From assembly GCA_000091165.1 (NCBI GenBank), contig FP565575.1:510001-542000 (forward strand): a DNA stretch of 32,000 nucleotides, written 5' to 3'. This DNA comes from Candidatus Methylomirabilis oxygeniifera (GTDB lineage Bacteria > Methylomirabilota > Methylomirabilia > Methylomirabilales > Methylomirabilaceae). Under the pieces are notes generated by a model. That model was given only the letters and a program-made list of their open reading frames with translations. It searched no databases and was not told the DNA's origin. Both the position numbers and the translations under genes were made by a program. Below, piece by piece: positions 2,569 to 32,000 of the stretch (position 1 is its first letter; each line of letters opens with the position of its first letter).

Positions 2569-2575
2569 GCCGACT

Positions 2576-3640: not shown

Positions 3641-3661
3641 AGCCGGCCAAGCGATTTTCGT

Positions 3662-3690
3662 TTGACAGGCGGGATCGGCGACGCTATAGT
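3662..3690 (+). promoter_or_regulatory. Sigma70-type promoter for tRNA-Gly
   Basis: TTGACA (3662-3667), a 17-nt spacer, then TATAGT (3685-3690), ending 11 nt before the tRNA 5' end. Confidence 0.6.
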
Positions 3691-3701
3691 GCTCTGCGGA
3701 T

Positions 3702-3776
3702 GCGGGAATAGCTCAGCGGTAGAGCATCGCCTTGCCAAGGCGAGGGTCGCGGGTTCAAATCCCGTTTCCCGCTCCA
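3702..3776 (+). tRNA. tRNA-Gly (anticodon GCC), CCA encoded
   Basis: Hand-folded cloverleaf. Acceptor GCGGGAA/TTCCCGC, anticodon stem TCGCC/GGCGA with loop TTGCCAA, T-arm GCGGG-TTCAAAT-CCCGT, discriminator T, then CCA. Confidence 0.93.
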
Positions 3777-3907
3777 ACCTTGTGACTGACGAACCGTTAT
3801 TGAGCGGATACATGAAGTAATCGGCATGTTGCCCATGGCCGTGCCCACCCAGTGTCTCTTACCCTACCGCCTGAATTGCTGGATCACGTCATCGTTGCCT
3901 CCCTCAT

Positions 3908-3983
3908 GGCGGCGTAGCCAAGTGGCTAAGGCAGAGGTCTGCAAAACCTTTATTCGGCGGTTCGAGTCCGCCCGCCGCCTCCA
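3908..3983 (+). tRNA. tRNA-Cys (anticodon GCA), CCA encoded
   Basis: Acceptor GGCGGCG/CGCCGCC, anticodon stem GAGGT/ACCTT with loop CTGCAAA, T-arm GGCGG-TTCGAGT-CCGCC, then T plus CCA. Confidence 0.92.
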
Positions 3984-4233
3984 CGCTTCCTTTGATGTGC
4001 ATACGGATTTCGCGTACTGTCTCTCAGGGGTATTCACGTGACTCCGATCGATCCGGCATATTGGGGTAGTCCTTCTATTGTATTCCCGGTACGTCGAGAG
4101 CGACAAACAGGCGTGTCATCCAATGCTTAGGTCATACGCGGGTGACGCTTTACTCCCCTATGTACTCCGTCGGCGCTCCGTAAGCCGCTGAACGGGGCGT
4201 GAGTCTGCTTATTATTATTTGTGGAGGAACCCT

Positions 4234-4809
4234 ATGGAACCTATGGATGGGGAAGAGAAGGAGAAGCAAGAGAAGAAGCATACAAAGTGGGTGAAGAGTG
4301 TCATGGGTATCGTCGCGCTTGGGGAAGCGGTTGTGATTTTTATTGGTATTCAGTTCATCCCCTACGGCCGGGGGTACAACAATCCTCCGGTGAAAACTGA
4401 GCCCCAATGGAACAGCCCCCAAACAAGAGAGCTATTTTTCCGTGCCTGTGGTGATTGTCACAGCAATGAAGTTGTCTGGCCATGGTATGGCTACATTGCA
4501 CCCGTGTCATGGTTCATTCAACACGACATCGACAAGGGTCGCGCTGCCCTCAACGTGTCGGAATGGGGACGTGTAGAGGAGAATAGTGGCGACGCTGCAG
4601 AAACCGTCAAGAACGGCTCAATGCCGCCTTGGGCCTATACAATCTTGCGTTCGTCGGCGAATATGGCTGCTTCCGAGAAGGAGACGTTCGTTCAGGGACT
4701 GGTAGCCACATTCGGCGAGCAGAAGAGCGACGAAAAAAGTAAAAAGAAGGTGGACGACTCGATACACTTCTTCCCCGTTCGTAAAGATGATCAGGGTACG
4801 GACAAATGA
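4234..4809 (+). CDS. Membrane-anchored haem-binding-domain protein (single CxxCH)
   Basis: GGAGG 6 nt upstream of the ATG at 4234 (the listed TTG at 4219 is less likely). One N-terminal TM helix (VMGIVALGEAVVIFIGIQFI). CGDCHSNE haem-c motif followed by WPWYGYIAPVSWFIQHDIDKGR…NGSMPPW, typical of the Haem_bd family. Confidence 0.7.
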   Translation: MEPMDGEEKEKQEKKHTKWVKSVMGIVALGEAVVIFIGIQFIPYGRGYNNPPVKTEPQWNSPQTRELFFRACGDCHSNEVVWPWYGYIAPVSWFIQHDIDKGRAALNVSEWGRVEENSGDAAETVKNGSMPPWAYTILRSSANMAASEKETFVQGLVATFGEQKSDEKSKKKVDDSIHFFPVRKDDQGTDK

Positions 4810-4867
4810 GATGCGCGTATTCCAATTGCTGCGGCGATCAACTCTGAACGCCGGATAAGAGCGAGTC

Positions 4868-6019
4868 ATGGACTTTGAGCTGAGCGAGGAACAACAGGCG
4901 GTCCGGACGATGGTCCGGGAGTGTGCCGAGCGAGAAATCGCGCCGGTCGCCGCCGAGATCGATGAGCAGGAACGGTTCCCGACCGGGATCATTCGAAAGC
5001 TGTCGGAGCTTGGGCTCATGGGTATTCTCTTTCCCAAGGCGTACGGAGGCGCGGGGATGGACTACATCAGCTATGCCCTGATCCTTGAAGAGCTCGGGCG
5101 ATACGATGCGTCGGTTGCGCTGACCGTGGAGTCGCACAACTCGCTTTGCAGCAATCACATTTATCTCTTTGGAAACGAGGCTCAGAGGAGTCGGTATCTA
5201 CCGCAACTGACCAGCGGCCAAGCCCTTGGCGCGTGGGCGATGACGGAGCCTGGGTCTGGGAGTGATGCCGCCGGGATGCAGGCTACTGCAGTGCTGGAAG
5301 GCGACCACTGGGTCCTGAACGGGACAAAGAACTTCATCACGCAGGGAAGCGTGGCGGGCATCTACGTGATTATGGCGCTCACCGATCGGGCCACGCGGGA
5401 GCGGGGGATCTCGGCCTTCATCGTGGAGCAGGGGACGCCTGGGTTGCGGGTCGGTCGGAAAGAGCACAAGATGGGATTCCGCGCCTCCGACACGGCTCAG
5501 GTGATTCTGGAAGATGTGCGTATTCCGGACGCGAACCTGCTGGGCGACCTACACCACGGCTTTATCGATGCGTTGACGATCCTGGATGCGGGGCGGATCG
5601 GGATGGCCGCCCTCAGCGTCGGTATCGCCCGCGGCTGTCTGGAGGAAGGGCTGAAGTACGCTAAAGAGCGCCAGGCCTTCGGCCGGCCAATAGCCAACTT
5701 TGAAGCGATTCAATGGAAGCTGGCCGACATGGCCACGGAAATTGACGCGGCCAGGCTTCTGGTCTTGCAGGCGGCCTATCTGAAAGACACCGATCAGCCG
5801 TTTACGAAGGAGGCGTCGTATGCCAAGCTCTTTGCCTCAGAGACGGCCATGAAGGCCGCCACTGAGGCAGTGCAGATCCACGGCGGCTATGGCTACATTA
5901 AGGAGTTTCCTGTCGAACGATATTTCCGGGACGCCAAGTTTTGCGCCATCGGCGAAGGAACCTCCGAGATCCAGCGCCTAATCATCGCCCGCGAACTGTT
6001 GGGTCGAGCGTATGTGTGA
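4868..6019 (+). CDS. Acyl-CoA dehydrogenase (short/branched-chain type)
   Basis: 383-aa ORF with canonical ACAD sequence along its whole length (…[17 protein letters not shown]…, …[41 protein letters not shown]). Confidence 0.92.
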
Positions 6020-6282: not shown

Positions 6283-7220
6283 ATGGAACTGGTAGACAAA
6301 ATTCTCAAAGGTGATGTACGCGCGGCGGCCCGCCTCATGACCATGATAGAAAACGGCGATGCCGAGGCCAGGGCCGCGCTAAAGTCACTCTACCCCCACA
6401 CCGGTTCAGCCCACATCATCGGGATCACCGGTCCGCCGGGCTCAGGAAAGAGCACGCTGGCAGACCGGCTGACCGAAGAGTTGCGAAAACGCGACAAGAC
6501 GGTAGGGATTGTCGCAGTGGATCCGACGAGCCCCTTCACCGGAGGCGCGATTCTGGGCGACCGGATCCGGATGCAAAGCCACAGCCTGGACGCGGGCGTT
6601 TTTATCCGCAGTATGGCGACGCGCGGCCACTTGGGCGGCCTCGCCCGCGCCACCAACGAAATTGTGGACGTCATGGATGCGGCGGGGAAAGAGGTGATTC
6701 TGATCGAGACGGTGGGGGTCGGCCAGGACGAGGTGGAGGTCGTGGGAACGGCGCACACCTGCGTGGTGGTCTCGGTTCCCGGATTGGGCGACGAGGTGCA
6801 GACGTTCAAAGCGGGCGTTCTGGAGATCGGCGACCTGTTCGTGGTCAACAAGGCCGACCGTGAGGGCGCGAACCGGACCGCCACAGAACTTGAGATGATG
6901 CTGCATATGGCGCCTAAAGGGGCCGCCTGGTCTCCAAAGGTTCTCAAGACGGTCGCCACGACAGGGGAAGTATCGCAGCGCTGCTGGATGCGATCTTCGA
7001 GCACAAAGCCTTCATGGATGAGCGCGATCTACAGAAGCAGAAAGGGCGGGAGCGAGGCGAGCGTGCATTTCGGGTGCTGCTGCAGGAGACGCTCACGGCC
7101 AGAGCGCTGGAGCAGTTCGATCGGAACGGCCGCATGCAGGAGCTGATCGCCCGCGTCGCCGATCGCACCCTCGATCCCTACACCGCCGTCGAAGAAGTCC
7201 TCGCCAAGCTCGGCCTATAG
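6283..7220 (+). pseudogene. meaB: MeaB/ArgK-type G3E GTPase (methylmalonyl-CoA-mutase chaperone family) with an apparent 1-nt deletion near 6970
   Basis: P-loop GITGPPGSGKST, switch region DPTSPFTGGAILGDR, and NKAD. After …VATTGE the frame moves from frame 1 to frame 0, where the conserved tail continues (…IAALLDAIFEHKAFMDERDLQKQKGRERGERAFRVLLQETL…, listed ORF 7014..7220). The total span is 938 nt, which is 3n+2. Confidence 0.8.
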
Positions 7221-7325: not shown

Positions 7326-8246
7326 TTAGGGAGCCTCCCGCAACTTGAACGAGACGCTGTAATACCGCACGTCGATATTCGTGGTCATCTCCAACGCGTA
7401 GGACAGTTTCGGATCGGGGTCACGGCAGATAACCAACCCCTTCACAGCCTGACCATCCGAGCAGATATTTTTCTTGACCCAACCCATATACCTTAGAATT
7501 TGGCCAATCACCTGATCCGACGGACGGCCTTTCTTGAGTTCAATGACGACAAACGACTCGGACTTAGGCTCGACTGCCAAAATGTCTATCGGACCAATGT
7601 CAGTAGCGTACTGCTGACTGTCATTGCCGTCGGCGTCCTCGAAGATCTTGAGCTCGCCTTTGAAAATCGTAGCGAAATTGCTTACGACGAAGTCTTCCAG
7701 GTACTTCTCCAGAACAAACGCATTGGGGTCTTCAATTGGTTCAGGCGCCTGCGACGGAACTATTGGTAGTCCGGCGCCTTCAACGAGGGCGTGGAACTGC
7801 TCCTCCGAGAATTCGGCGAGCGTGTGCATTGGGAAGACCACTCCGGGGAACGGCTTATCGCGCGGTTGTTCGTGCCACGAGACTTTCAGGAAGTTCTGGT
7901 GCGTATGTGCAGGATTCCTGCCCGGGGCGTAGAACGCTGGTTCGCTGACCGTACCCACGGCCGCGAGGGTTTTACGGCCTCTTCGGGCGACCACGATGTC
8001 ACCAGGGTAAATCTCGTGGTAGAAGGCCCAGAGCATGTTGGCAAAGAGACCCTTCGTTTGTTGCGGCTTGTCCGGATATGTTGACGCAACCACTTCGGAC
8101 AACTCTTGCCGGTTCACCTTCGAGACATCACCGAGCTGCGTCCAACCAATGGAGATGAGGTCGTTGGCCAAGTCGAACTGCCACACTTGGTCAAACATCT
8201 CTGTCGGCTTCGCCTCAACAGGAGCGATTACCCAATAACGTGGCAT
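7326..8246 (-). CDS. Two-domain protein with an unknown N-terminal domain and a C-terminal NucS/DUF91-like PD-(D/E)xK nuclease domain
   Basis: 306-aa ORF. The C-terminus has DIGPIDILAVEPKSESFVVIELKKGRPSDQVIGQILRYMGW, a D…E-x-K core followed by a Q-x-x-x-Y helix as in NucS-type endonuclease domains. The N-terminal ~150 aa (YWVIAP…ISIGWTQLGDVS…GDIVVARRG) was not recognised as a named family. GC looks lower than in the flanking genes by eye. Confidence 0.6.
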   Translation of the reverse strand: MPRYWVIAPVEAKPTEMFDQVWQFDLANDLISIGWTQLGDVSKVNRQELSEVVASTYPDKPQQTKGLFANMLWAFYHEIYPGDIVVARRGRKTLAAVGTVSEPAFYAPGRNPAHTHQNFLKVSWHEQPRDKPFPGVVFPMHTLAEFSEEQFHALVEGAGLPIVPSQAPEPIEDPNAFVLEKYLEDFVVSNFATIFKGELKIFEDADGNDSQQYATDIGPIDILAVEPKSESFVVIELKKGRPSDQVIGQILRYMGWVKKNICSDGQAVKGLVICRDPDPKLSYALEMTTNIDVRYYSVSFKLREAP

Positions 8247-8533
8247 TGATTATTCCTTTTGATTACCGTGGCTTGGGCTTCCTAACTATAGAGTAGACTG
8301 ATCGGTCTATCTCGATCGACTATTTTCGTAGTTAACGTGGATTCTATTGTGTTCTTTGCGCCAGCTACTGGCCGGGTGGGTGGCTGTACCCCTTCTATTC
8401 TCGAAATGAACGGCTGCAACAGCCGGCTTCTATGGATGACTGCGGCGATTAAGGCCTCCGTTGCCTGACGAAGAGGTGACCGGAATCCGGATTTATTGGC
8501 GATCCGGCGGACCGGTTGGTTCGGTGAACGACC

Positions 8534-8776
8534 CTATGCAGCTAATCTGGCTTCGTTCTGTACGATGATCTTGGGATCTTTCACTTTCGGAGGCACGGGC
8601 AGACCTCGTTCTTCGAGCAGTTCTACGTGTTCCTTCATTCCCCATTTCGCCTTATACACGCAGTCCTCGATGGAGTGACCAATCCCCGTAAATCCTTCCA
8701 GATCAGGAGAAAAAAACCCAAAATAATCGGGTTCCTCCGTTGCCTCGATGGTCAAAGAATAGGGCAGATCAATCAT
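8534..8776 (-). CDS. hicB: HicB-family antitoxin (short form without an obvious DNA-binding domain)
   Basis: 80 aa. The sequence YSLTIEATEEPDYFGFFSPDLEGFTGIGHSIEDCVYKAKWGMKEHVELLEERGLPVP is typical of the HicB/UPF0150 fold. GGGAGGA Shine-Dalgarno. The start overlaps the hicA stop by 8 nt. Confidence 0.85.
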   Translation of the reverse strand: MIDLPYSLTIEATEEPDYFGFFSPDLEGFTGIGHSIEDCVYKAKWGMKEHVELLEERGLPVPPKVKDPKIIVQNEARLAA

Positions 8777-8972
8777 GACTTCCTCCCTTCTGTATTCCTG
8801 CTGACTTCAGTATATGATGGCACGTGCCGCTGGGCACTTCCTTGGCCCCATGATAGTCAATCCGAATCAATGCAGGCCAGCCAGCTTTCCCATAATATCG
8901 GATGGACCCTTTCTCCCTCACCAGCTCGAATCCATGAGCTTCAAGCAGTCTCACCAACTCACTGAACTTCAA
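8769..8972 (-). CDS. hicA: HicA-family mRNA-interferase toxin
   Basis: Only the last 67 codons of listed ORF 8769..9257 look like HicA (KFSELVRLLEAHGFELVREKGSIRYYGKAGWPALIRIDYHGAKEVPSGTCHHILKSAGI). TTG at 8972 is preceded by AGGAG at a 6-nt spacing. Confidence 0.8.
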   Translation of the reverse strand: MKFSELVRLLEAHGFELVREKGSIRYYGKAGWPALIRIDYHGAKEVPSGTCHHILKSAGIQKGGSHD

Positions 8973-9405
8973 GATGGTCTCCTGTAGTCCACCGTCTATG
9001 ACATGCCAGTTTCCAGATGCCTCATACTGACACCGAACGCTGTCGGTAACCTGCGGGGCGGCAGATGAAGATAGAGCCACCGACTCTTCAGAGAAGAGCT
9101 GGAGTCGGGGTGTGTCCGTGCGAAGAGCTGGATCACATCTCGTCGGATAAGCTTCACTGAGCGATAATAGCAGACCGCTATTGTTTATCAAAGGACCGGC
9201 TGTGCTTCGGACCCAACAGGCCAGAGTGGTCCGCGCGGAGAAGTCCCACGCGTGCATGGCCGCCGGGAAGCGGCTGGTGAGAGTCGGAAAGCAGCAGTGA
9301 TTTTACTTGCCTTCCAAAATGTTTCAGCTTATAGGTCAGGCTATGAGCAGGAGAGAATACGTCGATGCAGGAGAGATCCTCACTAAAATCGGGCTGTAGG
9401 AGATT

Positions 9406-10383
9406 ATGAGCATGGATGTATTGCAGGCAGGTATCGGCGAATTCAGCGTCACAGACCCGGACGATCTGCGGGCCTTCATGCGCACCGAGAAGCGGCGGGC
9501 GATGGTGGACAAGGTCATGCCTGAAGCTGAGGCGGTTCGCCGCTATGTGAAGGACGGCGATTATGTGAGCTTCGACTTCTCCTCCTTTACTAGAGGCCCG
9601 GCCTCGCTTGTCCGGGAGATCATCCGCCAACGGAGGCGTGACCTCTGGTTTGCGGCGAAGTTTACGCTCATGGAAACGACGCTGCTGGCGGTCGGAGGCT
9701 GTTTGCGTGGGGTCGACGTGGGATTTCTGGGCCTTGGCCAGCTTATCGGCAAGTGGGTGCAGGAGGGGCGGATCAAGGTGACAGAGTGGACCAACGGGAC
9801 CTTGACGCTTCGCCACCTGGCCGGGGCGATGGGGGTGCCGTTTCTGCCGACCAGGAACCTGCTGGCGACAGATACCCTGACCTACTCCGGCGCCAAGGTG
9901 GTGCAGGATCCGTTCACCGGCAAGCCGATCGCGCTGGTCCCTGCCGTCAACCCCGATGTCGGACTGGTCCATGTCCATCAGTGCGATATCTACGGCAACG
10001 CTCGCTGCTTTGGCCCTGGTGTCTCGCCGCTGGAGACGGCCATGGCCTCCAAGCGGACGATTCTCTCGACCGAAGAGATCATCACGACCGACGACATCCG
10101 CAAGGAGCCGTCGAAGACCACCATCCCGTACTACATGGTGGATGCCGTCGTCTATGCCCCATTCGGCTGCCTGCCTGGGGGGACACAAGGGATCTACGAG
10201 ATGGATATCCCGCACTTCCTGGAGTTCATGGGCGCCTCACGCGACGAGCAGAAGATGGCCGCCTATCTCGACAAGTATGTCTATAGCGTCGCCACCCACG
10301 AGGAGTTTTTAGACAAGCGCGTGGGGATGGCGAGGCTCCTGGACCTGAAGCGGCAGGCGACGATCAAGGAGGGGTACCATTGA
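9406..10383 (+). CDS. CoA-transferase family I, subunit A (glutaconate-CoA-transferase GctA-like)
   Basis: 325-aa ORF with full-length family resemblance (…VSFDFSSFTRGP…EWTNGTLTLRHLAGAMGVPFLPTRNLLATD…GLVHVHQCDIYGNARC…). The start may be the second ATG, at 9412. Confidence 0.85.
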   Translation: MSMDVLQAGIGEFSVTDPDDLRAFMRTEKRRAMVDKVMPEAEAVRRYVKDGDYVSFDFSSFTRGPASLVREIIRQRRRDLWFAAKFTLMETTLLAVGGCLRGVDVGFLGLGQLIGKWVQEGRIKVTEWTNGTLTLRHLAGAMGVPFLPTRNLLATDTLTYSGAKVVQDPFTGKPIALVPAVNPDVGLVHVHQCDIYGNARCFGPGVSPLETAMASKRTILSTEEIITTDDIRKEPSKTTIPYYMVDAVVYAPFGCLPGGTQGIYEMDIPHFLEFMGASRDEQKMAAYLDKYVYSVATHEEFLDKRVGMARLLDLKRQATIKEGYH

Positions 10384-11174: not shown

Positions 11175-11240
11175 GGATGGGACAATTACCCCAAAATCTG
11201 AAAGCTTCTTACATGCGAGATAGGCTGACCAGTCTACTCA

Positions 11241-12191
11241 ATGGTTCGGCCGCAAGGTGAAATGACCATGACCGGTACTACGAATCCGAATCCGTCACCC
11301 CGTCGTATGCACGACCGGCGCTACTTCTACAAGTACGTCACCACCGATGTCGCGAAGATCGTAATGGCGACTCGCAAGCTGCGTTGGAGTTCCCCGTTGA
11401 AGTTCAATGATCCTTTCGACGTTACCCAACAGCTCCGTTTGCCCTTCAGTGCCGACGATCTCAACCTCGCCCTCGCTCAGCAACTGGCCGCGCTCTTTGA
11501 GACAGGCGATCCGACCCTGGTCCGGCAGCCTCTCGCCCGTACTCTGCTGCAGTTTGCTGGCGCGATGACTCCGCAGTCGCGAGCTCAGGTTGCCGCCAAG
11601 CTTCGGTCCGATCCCCGTGTCGCCACCCCAGGGAGGATCGACTCATTCAATGAGCTTCGGATCGTATGGCACGAAGTGGTTCCGCGTCTGCGAGCGCTGT
11701 GCCTCTCAGAAAGCTACGAGATTGTGCCTATGTGGGCGCACTACGCGGAGAATGGCACGGGTGCGGTGCTGGAGTTCGAAGCCATTGACCATCTAGATAG
11801 TGTCTTTCTTATGGCTCGCAAAGTAGTCTACCAAGACACGCCGCCAGCAATAGCAACGCCGCCGGCTTAGGCGCAATGCATGCTGGGCACGTCCAAGACG
11901 TCTTACATGGACCTGTTTTCCGAGCTGATGTACGTGAAGACTACTCCATGGTCCTACGAGAGGGAGTGGCGGCTCGTGACCGTGGCGCGGCTTGATGACG
12001 CAGATCTGCATGGCGATTGGGGCTTCCACCCTCAGGAACTCGCTGGAGTCTACCTGGGGCCGAGGTGCTCGGGTCAACATCGGGAAGACATCATGGCGCT
12101 CCGCGCCATGGGACTCGATCACATTCGTGTTTGGCAGGCTGCCGCGAATCCCGAACAGGGAACGCTGGAGTTTCAGCCGCTTGAGCTGTGA
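11241..12191 (+). pseudogene. DUF2971-family protein interrupted by one in-frame TAG (11868-11870)
   Basis: The N-terminal ORF carries the family signature YFYKY…LRWSSPLKFNDPFD. ORF 11880..12191 is in the same frame (both starts are 0 mod 3) and carries the C-terminal signature TTPWSYEREWRLV. Only the TAG plus three sense codons lie between the two listed ORFs. Confidence 0.7.
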
Positions 12192-23310: not shown

Positions 23311-23450
23311 GATTCCCCGCGACTTGCTGCGAGTTCGTCATACCGGCGGAAGCCGGTATCTAGAGGGCTCGACTGGATTCCGTGTCAAGCACGGAATGAC
23401 GGGCCAGAACAGAAGACGATACCCCGCGACTTGCTGCGGGGTAGTTCATT
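23311..23450. repeat. Composite REP/MITE-like element: ~30-bp direct repeats flanking two perfect hairpins
   Basis: DR1 GATTCCCCGCGACTTGCTGCGAGTTCGTCAT (23311-23341) and DR2 GATACCCCGCGACTTGCTGCGGGGTAGTTCATT (23418-23450). Hairpins are ATACCGGC-GGAA-GCCGGTAT (23340-23359) and ATTCCGTG-TCAAG-CACGGAAT (23377-23397). Confidence 0.55.
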
Positions 23451-27554: not shown

Positions 27555-28010
27555 AGTGAATCCCTCCCCAGATGAGTACTCTTCCCCCCCCCATAGGGCG
27601 ATCAGATCATAGCACGTCATAGCACTCGCTCAGGGTCGAATGCTCGGAACATTTAGCCTCCCACTTACCGCTCACTTTTTTTGACGCCGTTCCAAAGAAA
27701 AAGGATTCGTGAAATTCGGAATGAGAAAGGGGGCAGTAATTGGCTTAGATTGTTGGAGGGTGGAGGGTACGGCGGTGCGCTTCTGGAGAACCTTCCTCAG
27801 GGAGGGAATCGAATAGCGTGGATATCTTCAGACTCTTTCGGAAATCGTGTGGGTAATTGACCCCACCGGCGCGATGCTCAGACCCTCGAAAGGAGACTGT
27901 TCGGGTTTATCCGACCCGCAAGCGAGCAGCGGTCAGGTGGAACGGTTTGGGGATAACCCGCGCCGGGCGGAGCAAGACGCGGGTTCATCGCCTTGCTACG
28001 CTGCCCTCTG

Positions 28011-28655
28011 TTACGAGAAATGCTTGACGAGCAGCGCCTCCGTGAATCCGAGGATACTGGCAACCTCTGGGCGATCAACCTCGGTCCACTTCGCATGGAG
28101 TGCGCGATTGCGAAACGACAGATACGATTGAGCAATACCGACCTGGGCGCCCTGCAGCACATCCTTCTCTTTAAGAGCGGTAACTACGTCAGCCAGTTTT
28201 TCTTGATGTGGAAGCCCAGCCGAGGCAGCGAGACGCCTGAGAGAGTCTTCGAACGCCGCAGCAGCAAGCACCGCCGCAACGTTCTTGGTGGCCTCGCCAC
28301 CTTCATCGGAGACGGTTCTGGCAAGCTTGATCAAGTCGCTTAGGACCTCGCTTGTAACTGCATCGCGAAGGCTTCCCAACATCCCTACTTCAACATCGGC
28401 CTGAATCGCTTGAAGAACGCCTCGAAGCACATTTATCGAAGAATCTACACTGGCTGGGACCCCTGGATAATAAGATTTCGCAATTCGATCAAGTGCATTA
28501 CACATATCGCGTTCACGACTACTGTCACGCCCGTACAATACGTGTAGGAGACCTAGCGTTCCTTGATGTACCCTGTTCTGCACCTCAAGGTTTTTGGACC
28601 CCTGGGAGTCTTGGAGCAGATCCTTTAGGCGCACTTTGATCGCTTCTACGTCCAT
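28011..28655 (-). CDS. Hypothetical protein with a C-terminal HEPN-like Rx4H motif
   Basis: 214 aa, predicted all-helical. The C-terminus …LADVVTALKEKDVLQGAQVGIAQSYLSFRNRALHAKWTEVDRPEVASILGFTEALL contains R-N-R-A-L-H in a DUF4145/HEPN-like context. GC looks lower by eye. No partner gene in the same operon. Confidence 0.5.
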   Translation of the reverse strand: MDVEAIKVRLKDLLQDSQGSKNLEVQNRVHQGTLGLLHVLYGRDSSRERDMCNALDRIAKSYYPGVPASVDSSINVLRGVLQAIQADVEVGMLGSLRDAVTSEVLSDLIKLARTVSDEGGEATKNVAAVLAAAAFEDSLRRLAASAGLPHQEKLADVVTALKEKDVLQGAQVGIAQSYLSFRNRALHAKWTEVDRPEVASILGFTEALLVKHFS

Positions 28656-28788
28656 GAATTTACACCTGCCTCAGATGCCGCATGCCGTCAATCTAATGTC
28701 TCGCTCCGGGAGCACGCCGCTTGCTGCGCATCCCGCTTGACTGTAATGTTAGACTGCCTGGAGTTGCAATCAATGCAACTACACGCCA

Positions 28789-29124
28789 TTACTTTTCGCA
28801 CCTAAATCGGAGGGTTACATTGCCAGCCGCGAAGGTTCCGCCACCGGCGCCACCACCGTGAGCGTTCCACGATGCTCCAGCCGCGCTTTGGTATATATCT
28901 CGCTCTCTTGCATCGACTACAATTGCTCGACCGCCTTTGGCGCCGCAAAACTTCTGCGCCTCCTCATACGCGATGGCGTTTGCACCTGCGGTTCCACCAC
29001 GTACAGGCGCAGCCCTAGCAGAAATGATATACGTGCCTCCCTCAGCTTCCATAACACCACTGGTAGTGGCACACGCAGCTATTAATAATGACAGCGCAAC
29101 GACCCCCACGAGATATATTCTCAT
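28789..29124 (-). CDS. Small lipoprotein, unknown function
   Basis: 111 aa. Signal peptide plus lipobox LLIAAC. The start codon lies ~48 nt downstream of repeat copy 1. Confidence 0.6.
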   Translation of the reverse strand: MRIYLVGVVALSLLIAACATTSGVMEAEGGTYIISARAAPVRGGTAGANAIAYEEAQKFCGAKGGRAIVVDARERDIYQSAAGASWNAHGGGAGGGTFAAGNVTLRFRCEK

Positions 29125-29171
29125 GTTGTCCCTTTTAATGTATTGTCACAAATAGCTTGGCTGCGAACATG

Positions 29172-29327
29172 CTGGTCTGTATAACACCAGCCAAGCCCCC
29201 TCACGATTTACGGGATTTTCCTGCTGTTTCGCAGCCTTGTCAACGGAATTTCAACATGGCCCATAGGGACACAGGCCGCCCCGATGGTCGGCATAATCCT
29301 AATGGGGCCGACCACGCCGGCTTACGG
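29172..29327 (-). repeat. Cassette-punctuating repeat, copy 1 (~145-nt family)
   Basis: Aligns with copies at 30330-30476 and 31644-31787. Shared core (plus strand): CTGGTCYGTAYARCAC…ACGATWTRCGGGATTKTCCTGCYG…CAGMCTTGTCAAYGGAATTTCAAC…ATAGGGACAMAGGC…. Confidence 0.85.
29215..29243 (-). promoter_or_regulatory. Promoter inside repeat copy 1, facing the lipoprotein gene
   Basis: Minus strand: TTGACA (29243-29238), 17 nt, then GAAAAT (29220-29215). Confidence 0.45.
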
Positions 29328-29471
29328 AAGACGCTGACGCCATTTAGCAGGATTGCGAGACGTGTGAAATACGCCGTGGGCGGTCACCGCGCCCTTAACA
29401 TGCTCGTAGAACACCGCGTAGGGAAGGCGAGGCTCCAGCGAGTGGTCAGCCGGAGCCGACCGGCGACGACA
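29322..29471 (-). pseudogene. 5'-truncated ParE/RelE-type toxin remnant (last ~48 codons)
   Basis: The open frame reads …LEPRLPYAVFYEHVKGAVTAHGVFHTSRNPAKWRQRLP*, a ParE C-terminal pattern (FPY.v.Y…v.i..v.H..R.P). An in-frame TAA lies upstream at 29474-29472, and there is no start codon or N-terminal half. Confidence 0.45.
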
Positions 29472-29515
29472 TTAGGCGGCATTGAGCGCTGAGTCGGCCG
29501 GAACTCTGTGAGTGT

Positions 29516-29784
29516 CTACGCCGCGCGAAGGGGCGCAAGATCCCCACGCTTCGCCGGGGACACTCCCAAGCTGCGCAGGATCCGATTCAGGGCTGCAAGC
29601 GTGACCTTAGACGGGGCGGTAATTTCAATCCCAATCGGTTGACCATGCCGATTGAAATCGATCAGGAGGCCGGGCGCGGCCACGGCCGTTCGGCAGCTTT
29701 TTCCCCTGGGCGACGAGGCAGGTAGTAGTAGGCGGCGAGCGCCCGACCATGGCGAAACGTGACTTCCAGAAAGGGCTCCTTCAC
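29516..29784 (-). pseudogene. DUF2283-like small protein (GIEI motif) with an apparent 1-nt deletion
   Basis: GTG at 29784 with AGGAG 7 nt upstream. Frame a reads VKEPFLEVTFRHGRALAAYYYLPRRPGEKAAER…. Frame c continues …AVAAPGLLIDFNRHGQPIGIEITAPSKVTLAALNRILRSLGVSPAKRGDLAPLRAA*. The span is 269 nt (3n+2). The shift falls within about 29680-29705, next to the run GGGGAAAAA. Confidence 0.55.
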
Positions 29785-29818
29785 GTCACGACTCCTCGTG
29801 CGGTTGGCCCGACCGGAA

Positions 29819-30031
29819 TCACGCGAAGATTAGACGCCGTCCTTTTGGAATAGGAATCGGATCGCCAAACTCCTTGGCCGTGTCAAGCCAGAGGCCAATA
29901 GCCTCTTGGATATTGACCAGTGCTGCTTCCTGGGAAGCACCGTGTGCCATGCAGCCAGGAAGCTCAGGGGCCTCAGCCACGAACGCCTGATCCTCATCGC
30001 TCCAATAGATGATAACCTCGTACTTGTTCAT
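29819..30031 (-). CDS. hicB: HicB-family antitoxin
   Basis: 70 aa. YEVIIYWSDEDQAFVAEAPELPGCMAHGASQEAALVNIQEAIGLWLDTAKEFGDPIPIP is a canonical HicB N-domain. It overlaps hicA by 4 nt. Confidence 0.85.
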   Translation of the reverse strand: MNKYEVIIYWSDEDQAFVAEAPELPGCMAHGASQEAALVNIQEAIGLWLDTAKEFGDPIPIPKGRRLIFA

Positions 30032-30282
30032 TCCGCCTCACCTGCAAGTCCGTACGTCAGAATAACGTTTCGGACCTGCTTGACCTGATACGGCTTCGCC
30101 TCGTGACCTTCACGCTGAAGGTTCAGTTTCTCCTCAATTCCTGCGCGGCGGAAAATATGATGACTCCCGCGAACGCGCATCTCGAACCCCAGGCTTGTCA
30201 ACAGGTGGCAAAGGTCGTCGAAATCAAGATTTGCGTCGGACGTGCCGCTGAGGACACGACGAAGAACTTTGCCAGTGCTCAT
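30028..30282 (-). CDS. hicA: HicA-family toxin
   Basis: 84 aa. …[47 protein letters not shown]… is a HicA/YcfA pattern. Confidence 0.85.
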
Positions 30283-30329
30283 GCGACCATTCTACCTTGC
30301 GAAAGAACTTCTGGCTCACTACGATTAGA

Positions 30330-30476
30330 CTGGTCTGTATAGCACCCAGCCCAAGAATTCTTACGATATGCGGGATTGTCCTGCCGCCTCTCAGCCTTGT
30401 CAATGGAATTTCAACGGGGGCTATAGGGACAAAGGCTGCCTTGTGCCTGACTACAAGGGGGAACGAGACGGGTTAC
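30330..30476 (-). repeat. Cassette-punctuating repeat, copy 2
   Basis: Same family as copies 1 and 3. It is the most divergent copy. Its distal hairpin has a different sequence (CCTTGT/ACAAGG, 30439-30458) at the same position. Confidence 0.8.
30375..30403 (-). promoter_or_regulatory. Promoter inside repeat copy 2, facing hicA-hicB
   Basis: Minus strand: TTGACA (30403-30398), 17 nt, then GACAAT (30380-30375). Confidence 0.45.
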
Positions 30477-30587
30477 GCGGGGTCAGCGGCTGCGTGAGAA
30501 GCCCCCGTGATCTTCGTTCGGAGGAAGTGTCGGACACGTTTTCGCATCGCCGGCGTGATGGTAATATTTCGAGGCGGCCTACCGTGA

Positions 30588-30662
30588 AGTTAACCGGCGC
30601 GGGCCACGACAACCAACATTGTGCCGGCGGAACACGGCGTCCGGGCAAACGCCGGGTTAGGC
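30588..30662 (-). other. attC-like imperfect hairpin overlapping the higA stop codon
   Basis: Minus strand: GCCTAAC (a perfect RYYYAAC containing the higA TAA), then CCGGCG…, 49 nt, …CGCCGG, then GTTAACT (near GTTRRRY). TAACC(C)GGCG pairs with CGCCGGTTA, giving 9 bp with one bulged C. Total length 75 nt. Confidence 0.3.
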
Positions 30663-30950
30663 CGCCGTGAGCCGCAGCTTGCCAACTTTGCCGAGCTTGA
30701 GACGCTGTTTCGCTTGCCAGAGATCATGGTCGTTCTGCATAGCAAGCCAGCTCTCAGGAGAACGCCCGAGGGCCTTGGAGAGCCGCAGCGCCATTTCCGG
30801 ACTGATACGGCTGGAGCCCACCAGAATACGATGCAATGTCGAAGGTGCCACACCGAGCTTTGCAGCCAGCTCCCGGCCGCTCAGGTTATTCGGCTCCAGA
30901 TAGACCTGAGTGATGAACTCTCCGGGATGGGGTGGATTGTGCATAGCCAT
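30657..30950 (-). CDS. higA: HigA-family HTH (XRE) antitoxin
   Basis: HPGEFITQVYLEPNNLSGRELAAKLGVAPSTLHRILVGSSRISPEMALRLSKALGRSPESWLAMQNDHDLW is canonical HigA. Start is ATG 30950 (or TTG 30953), overlapping the TGA of the higB remnant. Confidence 0.85.
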   Translation of the reverse strand: MAMHNPPHPGEFITQVYLEPNNLSGRELAAKLGVAPSTLHRILVGSSRISPEMALRLSKALGRSPESWLAMQNDHDLWQAKQRLKLGKVGKLRLTAA

Positions 30951-31042
30951 CAATGATAATCCTCATAATCCAAGACGTAGGCGTGTCCGTCTTTGAATGC
31001 GAAGGTTACGCGCCGGTTCCCGTGCCCTTGTTGGCCCTCTCT
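30950..31042 (-). pseudogene. higB: HigB toxin remnant (last ~30 codons only)
   Basis: REGQQGHGNRRVTFAFKDGHAYVLDYEDYH* matches the HigB C-terminus (…R..F.f.dG.a..vdyeDYH). An in-frame TAG lies at 31045-31043. The upstream space is occupied by the parE 3' end. Confidence 0.5.
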
Positions 31043-31055
31043 CTATTCGCCTGCC

Positions 31056-31353
31056 TCAACGGCGGCCGCGCCAATAGAAAGGGCGCCTCTTCTGGTGCGC
31101 TACCGCCAGTAGTCTGACCTCGTCAGGCCGAACGGAGTAAACCAGAGAGTATGGGAATCTGACGAGGGGTTTCTTCCGCACACGTCCGCGGACGAACTGA
31201 GCCGCTTCCGGGAGACTGAGAGATGCTCTCTGCGCCGCGTTCGACCTCGTCGATGAACACACTGCCGAGCCCCGGGTCTTCGAGGTCGTAGAAGTCGGCT
31301 GTTTCGTTGATCTCGACCTCGGCCGTCTCGTGGATCGAAAATCGTCGGCTCAT
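31056..31353 (-). pseudogene. parE: ParE-family toxin with an apparent 1-nt insertion (frameshift near 31195-31215)
   Basis: The N-terminal frame reads MSRRFSIHETAEVEINETADFYDLEDPGLGSVFIDEVERGAESISQSP…. The C-terminal frame reads …PEAAQFVRGRVRKKPLVRFPYSLVYSVRPDEVRLLAVAHQKRRPFYW. The span is 298 nt (3n+1). The junction is at TCTCCCGGG. Confidence 0.7.
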
Positions 31354-31574
31354 TTTCGGCGAGCCCGCGCCCGGGCAAGCACTTCGTCCGCCGGGTACGC
31401 GCGGGCCGCGCCACTGTCGAGTTCCTCATCGCGCCGAATCGCTTCGTCGATCCATAGCTTTTCAATTTCTGCCTCACTCAGTGCGTCTAAACTGGCGAGC
31501 AGTTCGCGAGCCAGACGCGCACGCGCTGCCGGATTCAGGCGAAGGGCCTCTTCTCTTAGTTCGTCAACGTTCAT
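31350..31574 (-). CDS. Addiction-module antitoxin (Unstab_antitox type)
   Basis: 74 aa. …LSEAEIEKLWIDEAIRRDEELDSGAARAYPADEVL… is the characteristic W..E..RR..E…G motif. It overlaps parE by 4 nt. GGAGG Shine-Dalgarno. Confidence 0.75.
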   Translation of the reverse strand: MNVDELREEALRLNPAARARLARELLASLDALSEAEIEKLWIDEAIRRDEELDSGAARAYPADEVLARARARRK

Positions 31575-31643
31575 CTGCGCACCTCCAATTTCATTTGCGG
31601 TGTTCCTTATCGTCTTCTATTTTCCGGGCCAATTATGATTACG

Positions 31644-31787
31644 CTGGTCCGTACAACACAGCCCCAAAATTGCTCACGATATGCGGGATTTTCCTGCCGT
31701 TTCGCAGACTTGTCAACGGAATTTCAACAGGGCCCATAGGGACAAAGGCCGCCCCGACGGTCGGCATAATCCTGATATGGCCGACCA
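31644..31787 (-). repeat. Cassette-punctuating repeat, copy 3 (ends ~28 nt from the recombinase stop)
   Basis: Closest to copy 1. Includes the distal hairpin GGTCGGC…GCCGACC (31759-31786). Confidence 0.85.
31688..31716 (-). promoter_or_regulatory. Promoter inside repeat copy 3, facing the antitoxin-parE pair
   Basis: Minus strand: TTGACA (31716-31711), 17 nt, then GAAAAT (31693-31688). The -35 overlaps the direct repeat GTTGA-N6-GTTGA. Confidence 0.45.
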
Positions 31788-31815
31788 ATGCTGAGGTCGT
31801 GCGGGTGTGCACGGG

Positions 31816-32000
31816 CTACGGACTGCGAACCCCTCTGCTGCCTCGGTTCAACACATGGGTGTAGATCATCGTCGTACTGACATCCCGATAACCCAGCAAC
31901 TCCTGGACAGTGCGAATGTCATAGCCATCTTCGAGGCGATGTGTAGCAAAGGAATGGTGAACCTTACTGAAAATTGCGGCTGGGGGTGGCGAGGTTAGCG
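31816..32000 (-). CDS. intI: Integron-integrase-like tyrosine recombinase, C-terminal 60 codons (5' part lies beyond the window end)
   Basis: The minus-strand frame reads …[46 protein letters not shown]. The block [21 protein letters not shown]…G-GV-SP, containing the catalytic Tyr, is the pattern I associate with IntI proteins. The IntI-specific insertion cannot be assessed from this fragment. Confidence 0.65.

Follow-up and report, generated by a model that had tools for sequence, protein, structure and literature searches.

What are the three direct repeats that bracket small groups of genes in the window, the whole 32 kb stretch of DNA analysed here? The first-pass annotation placed them in no RNA family, MITE or attC class that it knew. 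That judgement holds for the Rfam search and the attC scan described below, but the class of the element is not unknown: the repeats are probably paralogues, each a copy of the Pc/attI platform of a now dead reverse chromosomal integron in a Candidatus Methylomirabilis genome. Each stands before one group of mostly toxin-antitoxin genes, a layout that is uncommon yet has a precedent.

The repeat copies and the genes between them

A repeat search with MAFFT alignment recovered three direct copies in the 32 kb window, and an nhmmer profile of the family locates them at 29153-29285 (E 7e-38), 30311-30445 (E 3e-39), and 31625-31758 (E 1e-41). No fourth copy was found by nhmmer in the 32 kb window, even with the filters off. 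The number and common orientation of the copies are thus as first described, and the start-to-start spacings of 1158-1160 and 1313-1314 nt agree with the reported 1.1-1.3 kb. The shared blocks quoted at that time, CGGGATT(T/G)TCCTGC, CTTGTCAA(C/T)GGAATTTCAAC, and ATAGGGACA(A/C)AGGC, are all present on the plus strand. The functional sense of the element and of all genes in the region is the minus strand, which had been read implicitly; the correction to be made is that every neighbouring gene codes on it. The element is also somewhat longer than the ~145 nt first given, as a stem-loop precedes the conserved core; the core spans ~127 nt, and core and stem-loop together 150-165 nt (full range 130-170 nt). 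The layout is element, group A, element, group B, element, with all elements in direct orientation:

31816..31962, minus strand: intI', C-terminal remnant of ~47 codons plus TAG; in-frame stop upstream, rest of the gene deleted
31625..31786, minus strand: repeat copy 3, directly 3' of intI'
31759-31786, minus strand: stem-loop of copy 3, GGTCGGCC..GCCGACC
31627-31753, minus strand: core of copy 3
31711-31716 and 31688-31693, minus strand: predicted promoter of copy 3, -35 TTGACA and -10 GAAAAT
31644-31649 and 31627-31633, minus strand: terminal block of copy 3, GACCAG and the degenerate R-box position ATTGGCC
30657..31574, minus strand: gene group A, between copies 3 and 2 (Pfam)
31350-31574, minus strand: group A, Unstab_antitox antitoxin (Pfam)
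31123-31353, minus strand: group A, truncated toxin-like ORF
within group A, minus strand: HigB C-terminal remnant, read from the sequence
30657-30953, minus strand: group A, HigA-like HTH_3 antitoxin (Pfam)
30311..30458, minus strand: repeat copy 2, flanked on the left by the 3' remnant of a zf-HC2 anti-sigma gene
30439-30458, minus strand: stem-loop of copy 2, CCTTGT..ACAAGG, different from that of copy 3
30313-30440, minus strand: core of copy 2, with R-box position GTGAGCC at 30313-30319
30398-30403 and 30375-30380, minus strand: predicted promoter of copy 2, -35 and -10 GACAAT
29330..30282, minus strand: gene group B, between copies 2 and 1
30028-30282 and 29819-30031, minus strand: group B, HicA and HicB
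29516-29784, minus strand: group B, frameshifted DUF2283
TAA at ~29330, minus strand: group B, ParE/RelE-like C-terminal remnant, a by-eye reading of the translation
29153..29313, minus strand: repeat copy 1, stem-loop 29286-29313 and core 29155-29280
29238-29243 and 29215-29220, minus strand: predicted promoter of copy 1, -35 and -10 GAAAAT
29155-29161, minus strand: diverged 3' end of copy 1, GCCAAGC
28011..29124, minus strand: downstream of copy 1, lipoprotein-like ORF (28789-29124) and 214-aa ORF (28011-28655)

The copies had been said to start shortly after stop codons, and they do: the hairpin of copy 3 begins 29 nt past the TAG of intI' (31816-31818), copy 1 begins 9 nt past the TAA of the ParE/RelE-like remnant, for which no Pfam family was found, and a remnant ending in TAA precedes copy 2. 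The latter had been taken for an RHH-like remnant; homology with the intact gene of the related strain L035 identifies it as a zf-HC2 anti-sigma factor. The distance of 35-70 nt to the next start codon is obtained from the repeat ends used originally (47-69 nt), whereas from the end of the conserved block to the next ATG it is 52, 30, and 30 nt. The ORFs called across the copies are indeed not conserved as protein, and the alignment reveals 1-2 nt indels between copies that shift the frame. Homology with L035 resumes just past the genes at 28011..29124, before msrB.

The best NCBIfam match of intI' is the integron integrase family TIGR02249 (E 5.6e-23 over profile positions 265-311 of 315), with XerC/XerD ranking behind it; the fragment is far too short to reach the TIGR02249 cutoff, and the IntI-specific extra domain is absent from it. 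All genes adjoining the remnant are co-oriented with it. Of the three repeats, only copy 3 lies next to intI'. The DNA upstream of intI' in L001 is a dnaE2 3' remnant fused to intI'.

Predicted promoter, terminal block and folding of the element

A promoter scan of 28600-32000 returned three sites and no others; every repeat has one of them, on the minus strand and with a 10/12 match to the consensus. The -35 hexamer TTGACA, the 17-nt spacer, and A2/T6 of the -10 hexamer (GAMAAT) are invariant in 11 sequences, and the -10 hexamer starts with G in all copies. The consensus match predicts that the promoter in each copy is intact and reads into the downstream genes; it would be of the sigma-70 type and equivalent to Pc, pointing away from intI.

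Conservation extends beyond the promoter, the 60 nt past the -10 hexamer being conserved as strongly as the promoter itself. Homology between loci, despite different downstream genes, stops at GACCAG...ATCATAG/ (the slash here and below marks the predicted crossover). The sequence that follows ...CATAG is TTAGAC in L017, TTATGC in L037 and L039, and TTCGGC in L008, with G/TTAGGC and G/TTAGCT as the counterparts in L045 and L048; the window heptamers at this position, ATTGGCC, GTGAGCC, and GCCAAGC, are degenerate. With its spacing of ~60 nt past the promoter and the arrangement GACCAG-N8-ATCATAG/TTAGAC, the terminal block is a candidate attI with a GTTRRRY-type R box, at which IntI would bind and cut after the G. 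Two further attI-core-like motifs are present in the window at 8281-8314 and 11216-11249, upstream of unrelated genes.

The position of the repeats also raises the question of attC sites. Our attC scan was home-made rather than IntegronFinder and required a pair of R''/R' heptamers together with pairing. It was validated on one control sequence (labelled aadA7-type), which it recovered, as well as the attCs of the related loci L035, L008, L045, and L048. In the window, the three repeats were not flagged even under relaxed criteria, and no canonical attC passed. The repeats were rejected as attC because the R''/R' palindrome (RYYYAAC...GTTRRRY) is absent. An attC is expected to measure 57-141 nt and to lie at the 3' end of a cassette ORF; the ~127 nt core follows stop codons, yet it lies equally upstream of the next gene. 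An unusual attC class would be in keeping with copies that stand between gene groups, near an integrase remnant, in one orientation, and as alike as in sedentary chromosomal integrons. The ends of the repeats, however, carry no inverted cores and form no end-to-end imperfect palindrome; no common end-to-end hairpin was found in DNA and RNA folds of both strands, and the centre, the most conserved part, is non-palindromic. Moreover, related loci hold ordinary attCs besides the element, and the copy beside intI occupies the position of attI rather than the 3' end of a cassette. Such a class is therefore very improbable. A different stretch, 30577..30662 (minus strand) after HigA, is attC-like: its R'' GCCTAAC overlaps the stop codon and its R' is GGTAGGC (GTT to GGT). 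It has the same core heptamers as the canonical L035 attC, and its hairpin energy is non-significant (z ~ -1.1); it is possibly a decayed attC.

A structured RNA, be it an sRNA, a 5' leader, or a riboregulator common to the downstream operons, could likewise lie upstream of genes and be conserved over 130 nt, well past the promoter hexamers, and column shuffling gives z ~ -3.4 on both strands. This is at odds with the conserved-structure check proposed by the first-pass annotation, in which the RNAalifold consensus fold over 189 columns is weak (-10.2 and -8.4 kcal/mol) and covariation contributes an unfavourable term (+1.19) in the promoter-forward direction. The leader that would be transcribed has no consensus structure, with a double change in only 3/23 pairs, and the Rfam search, also proposed earlier, gave no match for the repeats at the gathering threshold or at E up to 10. 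We give this explanation very little credence.

Related loci of Methylomirabilota type

Pattern scans of genomes and metagenomes, combined with nhmmer, followed the earlier suggestion to search related genomes and located the element in nine other Methylomirabilota-type loci: L008, L017, L019, L034/L038, L035 (twice), L036, L037, and L039. In L008, it stands before the housekeeping gene gdhA. A C-terminal remnant of intI, with different cut points, directly precedes the element in L008, L017, L035, L036, L037, and L039; no recognisable remnant precedes it in L019 and L034/L038. An intact intI with the exact element downstream was not found by pattern scans and nhmmer. The association of the repeat with cassette boundaries and the recombinase is thus upheld. 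Small mobile repeats of the dispersed kind, such as a MITE or REP, would also be short, non-coding, and intergenic, as the element is. Terminal inverted repeats and target-site duplications are absent, though, and instead of a dispersed distribution there are three clustered copies in the window and one copy each in the species-representative genomes L008, L017, and L019, so that a repeat of this kind is extremely improbable. The phage and plasmid collections contained no match to the element.

The order dnaE2-intI is seen in L037 and L042, and a 190-nt dnaE2 3' remnant is fused to intI' in the window and in L035. The ancestral arrangement in the Methylomirabilis lineage was probably lexA-imuA-imuB-dnaE2-intI-element.

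Besides the element, several relatives carry ordinary attCs that are 58-97 nt long and have GCCTAAC/GTTAGGC cores. In L035, an attC (4430-4519; GCCTAAC..GTTAGGC, 7/7 R''/R' positions complementary) follows the first downstream ORF, and in L008 an attC (5319-5378) follows the first ORF downstream of the element. L045 has three attCs after CGTTGACAAGTTT...AATAG/TTAGGC. L048 encodes a near-full-length IntI (TIGR02249, 392.7 bits against a cutoff of 265) that is co-oriented with its cassettes; it is followed by a hairpin, TTGCGA-17-TAGAAT, ATAGGCTGACCAGCTTACATAATTAG/TTAGCT, and then cassettes with attCs, among which are HigB/HTH, HicB, and Unstab_antitox genes. Thus, canonical attC-bounded cassettes start just past the terminal-block position in L035, L045, and L048. 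The likeness of the element to the platforms of L045 and L048 is at the level of motifs only, with an nhmmer E of 6e-4 for L045 and nothing for L048.

Constraint was gauged by comparing L035 with L037. Their intI' remnants differ at 2, 0, and 16 sites in codon positions 1, 2, and 3. The element is under purifying selection, since it differs by only 11-16% between the two loci while 43% of the intI' third positions differ.

These data bear on the alternative that the repeats are mere promoter or regulatory modules, for example TA operator-promoters, that were spread by ordinary recombination and came to lie beside intI by accident. TTGACA-17-GAMAAT is the strongest invariant feature, the element is conserved where intI is dead, the R-box heptamers of the window are degenerate, and the position before gdhA in L008 points the same way. 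A promoter by itself, however, does not account for the equal conservation of the 60 nt after the -10 hexamer, for the stop of inter-locus homology at a GTTRRRY-like heptamer, for the canonical cassettes that begin downstream of this heptamer in L035, L045, and L048, or for the intI 3' end that directly precedes the element in 6/9 other loci. We consider this alternative unlikely.

The elements have also recombined with one another. In the main L035 element, informative sites on the left favour copy 3 by 12 to 1 and those on the right favour copy 2 by 12 to 2, and the right half of copy 2 is 89-91% identical to the right halves of the L035 and L037 elements. The L035 gene downstream of the main element is unlike those after copies 2 and 3, and the difference starts exactly at CGTAG/. 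The main L035 element is chimeric and records recombination between copies.

A probable triplicated attI/Pc platform and its precedents

In reverse integrons, Pc and attI lie between intI and the first cassette (PMC4909258). The platform reading assumes an ancestral integron of this type, in which the intI stop codon would have been followed by the stem-loop, the promoter, and then the attI where cassettes were inserted. The integrase is now dead, with just its last 47 codons left, and site-specific recombination from the locus is consequently no longer expected. Since the left part of attI is not copied in normal IntI recombination, the triplication calls for a further event, which has not been observed. 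A ~25-nt intI tail, read by eye alongside the L035 counterpart of copy 2, suggests that an intI-attI unit was duplicated and that intI was then deleted. Today, the copies most probably act as outward promoters for groups made up mostly of toxin-antitoxin modules, each copy ending 30-52 nt before the first gene of its group. As direct repeats, they probably also recombine with one another and thereby reshuffle or delete gene groups. The element would accordingly match a known family in kind, the attI/Pc platform, and not in sequence.

A further variant supposes that the attI/Pc module took over the role of attC, the groups being bracketed by full attI-type sites. Exchange would then proceed between double-stranded attI sites, by another IntI acting in trans or by homologous recombination, and every unit would have its own copy of the platform promoter. 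The mosaic of element halves across lineages, the chimeric L035 junction, and the motifs at 8281-8314 and 11216-11249 fit this variant, which we nevertheless regard as quite unlikely. If it were true, attI-type sites would be dispersed and more widely used in the genome, and the integron would be one built on attI repeats in place of attC hairpins.

The proposed platform resembles that of the Treponema denticola reverse integron, in which intI is co-oriented with the cassettes and variable genes follow; the promoter and the insertion site fall within the ~250 nt that separate the intI stop from the first cassette ORF, 242 nt here and 271 bp there (PMC4909258). As in reverse chromosomal integrons, the relatives carry canonical attC cassettes. 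In contrast to the Treponema denticola type, the element is unlike every described attI in sequence, only 47 codons of intI are left, three copies of the platform occur inside the array, the integron would stand at the end of a lexA-imuA-imuB-dnaE2 operon, and the host belongs to Methylomirabilota (NC10).

Unusual delta-attI-type cassettes of mobile integrons were reportedly described by Partridge in 2009. The attI-ORF-attI form of such a cassette is the closest precedent, in that an attI-derived sequence stands where an attC is expected; judged by architecture, gene groups are bracketed by direct attI copies downstream as well. Some known versions are long (delta-attI2-238, and a full 65-bp attI1 on either side), but most cases are fragments of 14-18 nt, and they come from integrons on plasmids or transposons whose IntI is live. 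Here, the entire platform of 130-170 nt with its promoter is repeated in a chromosomal, integrase-dead setting, and the units consist of several decayed genes. Copies of attI inside arrays are known to be recombination-proficient (PMC12901181), and attI1-ORF-attI1 occurs in class 1 and class 2 mobile integrons (Gonzales Machuca et al. 2026, PMC12901181).

The sedentary chromosomal integrons of Vibrio share the interspersed toxin-antitoxin modules and the internal promoters that restart expression. Those promoters belong to single attC (VCR)-bounded cassettes, whereas here they would be copies of the platform's own. Degraded integrons with an inactivated integrase and relic recombination sites also recall the CALIN and In0 categories of IntegronFinder, reportedly introduced by Cury et al. 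in 2016. A CALIN consists of at least two attC sites without an integrase; in contrast, the repeated sites here are attI-like.

To our knowledge, no current tool annotates attI sites, and detailed knowledge of them is limited to a few integron classes. The platform described here would provide a sequence-defined attI/Pc for a reverse integron clade of the uncultivated NC10 bacteria, the nitrite-dependent methane oxidisers, and would place the integrase at the downstream end of lexA-imuA-imuB-dnaE2, the SOS mutagenesis operon. The loci document how integrons die: erosion of intI took its own course in each lineage, while selection preserved the promoter/attI block, which was re-used. The attI-ORF-attI layout, known until now from mobile integrons of clinical origin, would be extended to an environmental chromosome. 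The finding is of use for annotating integrons and for understanding their evolution, and it represents no new kind of system. For the organism, it suggests that internal Pc copies can keep distal gene groups, here toxin-antitoxin modules, expressed.

The three repeats and their surroundings

The three same-orientation copies of a ~145-nt repeat recorded in the first-pass annotation are real: a repeat search, MAFFT alignment and a profile HMM concur. The repeat search of the window returned a family of three direct repeats, each 115 nt long (29200-29314, 30360-30474 and 31673-31787), and a second, adjoining direct-repeat family of 28 nt with identical spacing (1158/1160 and 1313/1314 nt). Mean column identity among the three copies is 78% in the MAFFT alignment, in which all of the identical blocks quoted in that annotation are present. 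The family profile HMM matches 29153-29285 (E 7e-38), 30311-30445 (E 3e-39) and 31625-31758 (E 1e-41) and, with all filters off, found no fourth copy in the 32 kb window. Contigs with the identical HicA protein from six independent samples carry the same three copies at the same spacing, which indicates that the triple array is a stable feature of a natural population rather than an assembly artefact.

All credible genes between 28000 and 32000 lie on the minus strand. Read on this strand, a stop codon does stand just before each copy and a start codon soon after it, as had been described. Among the labels given earlier to the preceding units, that of an RHH-like remnant before copy 2 did not hold; the intact gene of L035, the sister locus, identifies it as the tail of an anti-sigma factor gene.

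Gene order on the minus strand, and other features of the region
31816-31962 (-): integrase remnant intI', start of the order
31625-31786 (-): copy 3
between copies 3 and 2 (-): Unstab_antitox antitoxin, truncated toxin-like ORF, HigB remnant, HigA-like HTH_3 protein, short zf-HC2 anti-sigma 3' remnant
30311-30458 (-): copy 2
between copies 2 and 1 (-): HicA-HicB, frameshifted DUF2283, ParE/RelE-like C-terminal remnant
29153-29313 (-): copy 1
after copy 1 (-): lipoprotein-like ORF, 214-aa ORF, msrB, housekeeping genes
just past window coordinate 32000 (part of the dnaE2-intI' locus at L001 8084-8467): dnaE2 3' remnant, ~190 nt
3702-3776 and 3908-3983 (+): tRNA-Gly(GCC) and tRNA-Cys(GCA) genes
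8769-9257 (-); L001 2717-3312 and 17088-17626: examples of toxin-antitoxin genes outside the repeats (L001 is contig WBTX01000004.1, covering the window locus and beyond)

Toxin-antitoxin modules are unusually abundant on the surrounding chromosome beyond the repeat region too (HicA-domain ORF, BrnT/CopG, ParE/RHH), and several ParE-like fragments share short DNA similarity (29406-29436 with 10310-10339). We also note a 28-nt direct repeat, 23311-23338 and 23418-23445, whose members are 86% identical and 107 nt apart (GAT(T/A)CCCCGCGACTTGCTGCG(A/G)G(T/G)T(C/A)GT).

Anatomy of the element and readings rejected

On the minus strand, the upstream stop codon is followed by a GC-rich stem-loop, GGTCGGCC-N13-GCCGACC in copies 1 and 3 and most relatives; the hairpin at the same place in copy 2 differs (CCTTGT-N8-ACAAGG). 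The next block 3' of the stem-loop, GTTGAAATTCCGTTGACA, contains an invariant TTGACA, and the -10 hexamer lies exactly 17 nt after it as GAAAAT, GACAAT, GAAACT or GAGAAT, with A2 and T6 invariant in the alignment. A promoter scan of 28600-32000 returned three sites, one per repeat, all directed at the downstream genes, the distance from promoter to first start codon being 84-107 nt for the gene groups. Every copy retains the intact motif and, judged from this sequence, the element promoter is probably active. The last ~60 conserved nt end ACAGACCAG-N3-AATCATAG, followed by TTAGAC, TTATGC or TTCGGC; past this point nothing is shared among loci with different downstream genes. The R-box heptamers of the window copies are degenerate (ATTGGCC, GTGAGCC, GCCAAGC).

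A candidate second, weaker promoter (TTGGGn, 17-18 nt, (T/C)ATAAT-like) was seen by eye in the right half of the repeats, where the scanner is silent. Its -10 is a perfect TATAAT in the metagenome loci L037 and L039, and its predicted start falls right at the predicted cassette junction.

Candidate second promoter, read from the alignment
31633-31667 (-): in copy 3
30319-30354 (-): in copy 2
29161-29194 (-): in copy 1

Several other readings of the repeats were considered. A structured RNA was rejected: Rfam, searched over the whole window at gathering threshold and over 28700-32000 at E up to 10, returned only the two tRNAs and noise. Neither strand gave a convincing structure, whether single sequences were folded as RNA or DNA or alignment columns were shuffled, and the predicted leader is without consensus structure. 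The RNAalifold consensus of 11 sequences is weak (-10.2 or -8.4 kcal/mol over 189 columns), with an unfavourable covariation term on the promoter-forward strand. A conserved small ORF would fit the in-frame TAA that most copies share, but indels of 1-2 nt between copies shift the frame; the repeats are therefore taken to be non-coding, in agreement with the earlier remark that the ORFs called across them are not conserved as protein. A MITE was rejected for the lack of terminal inverted repeats and target-site duplications and by single-copy occurrence in other genomes; plasmid and phage collections gave no match to the element (blastn, distant mode). No conserved sigma-54 promoter, LexA-type palindrome or L-box could be read from the alignment.

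For attC sites, a home-made scanner of R''/R' pair and hairpin was used at strict and relaxed settings; it recovered its one control, a presumed aadA7-type attC. Because relaxed settings give many false positives, only calls with 7/7 R''/R' positions complementary were trusted. The repeats were flagged at neither setting, and the attC reading was rejected, since their ends are without inverted RYYYAAC/GTTRRRY cores, there is no end-to-end hairpin and the conserved centre is non-palindromic. A covariance model was abandoned because five canonical attCs aligned poorly with MAFFT. The sole attC-like relic in the window, 30577-30662, is statistically unconvincing; weak attC-like sequences after the lipoprotein gene (~28660-28725) and after the 214-aa ORF (~27935-28010) were seen by eye only and are not claimed.

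The integrase remnant and related integron loci

The minus-strand translation of 31816-31962 has as its best NCBIfam match the integron integrase family TIGR02249 (E 5.6e-23, profile positions 265-311 of 315), which beats XerC/XerD by seven orders of magnitude. Upstream of this 47-codon remnant, L001 contains an in-frame stop and ~190 nt of the dnaE2 3' end, which indicates that deletion has removed the remainder of intI and the greater part of dnaE2. The ancestral operon, lexA-...-imuA-imuB-dnaE2-intI, is seen in L042. In L037 the first ~85 intI codons come directly after dnaE2; ~2.1 kb with toxin-antitoxin genes separates them from the final 47 codons, after which the element follows. In both loci (L042 518-8438; L037, oriented, 1681-5087) the integrase ends the co-oriented string of SOS mutagenesis genes; the gap of ~20 nt after dnaE2 leaves no room for an attI upstream of intI, and downstream of it are cassette-like genes that point the same way. 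This matches the reverse-integron arrangement: intI first, then Pc, attI and the cassettes (PMC4909258).

Among species-representative genomes, 27 stretches match the most conserved 19-mer, where ~17 are expected by chance; 3 of the 27 are true family members (L008, L017, L019), and a gapped pattern scan of metagenome contigs added six further loci, L034 to L039. The element lies directly 3' of an intI C-terminus remnant (...GRGVRSPLD...) in L008, L017, L035, L036, L037 and L039, and the remnant is cut at a different point in each; L019 and L034/L038 have the element and no recognisable intI remnant. The intI remnants of L035 and L037 differ at codon positions 1, 2 and 3 by 2, 0 and 16, a pattern that points to protein-level selection over the greater part of their divergence, and to independent and recent destruction of intI in each lineage. 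Third positions of intI' differ by 43% between the two loci and the element by only 11-16%, which argues that the whole 130 nt, beyond a hexamer or two, is under purifying selection. Very likely, the repeat is the stretch immediately 3' of intI and has been conserved as one unit.

No intact intI adjoining the element was found in contig look-ups of N-terminal fragments or in two protein searches, which returned only proteins up to ~1.75x the query length and so placed full-length IntI beyond reach. Of the contigs looked up, L042-L044 are without the element, L045 and L048 are related reverse integrons, and L046, L047 and L050 are uninformative. A second, N-terminal intI fragment of 78 aa is present in GCA_009026205.1, the assembly that also contains L001 (L040 8001-8347), at the end of contig WBTX01000017.1 beside an IS (rve_3) gene fragment.

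L035 has a textbook attC at 4430-4519 (GCCTAAC...GTTAGGC, 7/7 R''/R', -29.8 kcal/mol), 43 nt past the stop codon of the ORF that comes first after the element, and the scanner places one two genes downstream of the element in L008. In the more distant L045, intI is internally deleted and is followed by the promoter region CGTTGACAAGTTT, AATAG↓TTAGGC (arrow, junction) and three cassettes, whose attCs start right after the cassette ORFs. IntI of L048 is near full length but frameshifted (TIGR02249, 392.7 bits against a cutoff of 265); 3' of it lie a stem-loop, TTGCGA-17-TAGAAT and ATAGGCTGACCAGCTTACATAATTAG↓TTAGCT, with the first cassette ATG 7 nt further. Its cassettes include HigB/HTH, HicB and Unstab_antitox genes.

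attC sites of L048, by the scanner
3814-3900: attC
5584-5641: attC
6596-6655: attC

Taken together, these loci indicate that the GACCAG...TAG↓TTAG block ending the window's repeat is where arrays begin in related, better-preserved integrons. We lean modestly towards reading this terminal block as a putative attI whose crossover point is the terminal G↓TT, and the combined explanation, that the repeats are copies of an integron platform, is considered fairly probable. The first-pass annotation had proposed a mark of cassette boundaries beside a recombinase, unmatched to any known class; the tie to boundaries and recombinase stands, while the repeats most likely belong to a known kind, the integron platform, and not to a new class.

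In L008, a Methylomirabilota genome (oriented, 3256-4827), the element lies 95 nt upstream of the housekeeping glutamate dehydrogenase gene, gdhA, with the canonical attC cassette only further downstream, which suggests that the integron promoter was co-opted or that gdhA was captured.

Elsewhere in the window, a 34-nt inverted repeat has arms within 8281-8360 (-) and at 11216-11249 (+), 2.9 kb apart and 82% complementary, that read CGAGATAG(A/G)C(C/T)GA(T/C)CAGTCTACTC.AT.GTT.GG. Each arm is just upstream of, and directed into, a gene (PDDEXK-nuclease-like, 7326-8246 (-); ORF of unknown function, 11241-11870 (+)), and a HicA-like gene and two CoA-transferase subunits lie between them; the ORF that follows motif B has no entry on record. 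The arm at 8281-8360 is significantly similar over ~80 nt to the L048 Pc/attI platform, at a score reached by 0/500 shuffles, and the 457 kb of sequence examined contain the 13-mer ATAGRCYGAYCAG nowhere except in the L048/L049 attI and the two window sites. Possibly, these two window sites are remnants of a second attI type.

Repetition of the probable platform and its proposed role

To our knowledge, ordinary attI x attC recombination never duplicates the left part of attI, so that the triplication needs some other event. Copy 2 and the partial second copy of L035 share an anti-sigma gene tail as their left flank, and the latter seemingly keeps ~25 nt resembling the intI 3' end (by eye); at least that copy may thus derive from an intI-attI unit of its own, the integrase of which would have been deleted later. 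This second copy (L035, oriented, 2468-2690) carries an insertion of ~80 nt in the loop of the stem-loop and ends after ...CATGAGGATTC, where the final 18 nt of higB are joined to it; the counterpart place in the window's genome holds an intact higB-higA with its own promoter.

The main element of L035 is chimeric: its left part sides with copy 3 at 12 informative sites against 1, its right part with copy 2 at 12 against 2, and a different cassette starts exactly after its CGTAG. Left and right halves are re-assorted across the family, as in L037 and L008 (identity 90% left, 75% right), and together these features indicate that recombination between copies is recurrent. Between conserved flanks, the sister strains differ in gene content, with 3.7 kb and three copies in the window versus 1.1 kb and one canonical cassette in L035. 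A precedent for the repeated platform of the window comes from mobile integrons of classes 1 and 2, where cassettes with attI-derived sequence in place of attC are documented and are recombination-proficient; among them are a complete attI1-ORF-attI1 unit and a delta-attI2 of 244 nt (PMC12901181).

With intI cut to 47 codons, site-specific recombination from the window locus is not expected, and the degenerate R boxes and the unconvincing relic at 30577-30662 fit a long-dead recombination system. Since an intact promoter precedes each gene group by 84-107 nt, the copies probably serve as internal copies of Pc, from which the toxin-antitoxin groups and the lipoprotein gene would continue to be expressed. 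The stem-loop before the promoter may insulate it from upstream transcription, and as direct repeats the copies could mediate loss or exchange of gene groups. New here are the sequence family itself, the phylum in which it occurs, its link with the SOS mutasome operon and the presence of the complete platform in three copies.
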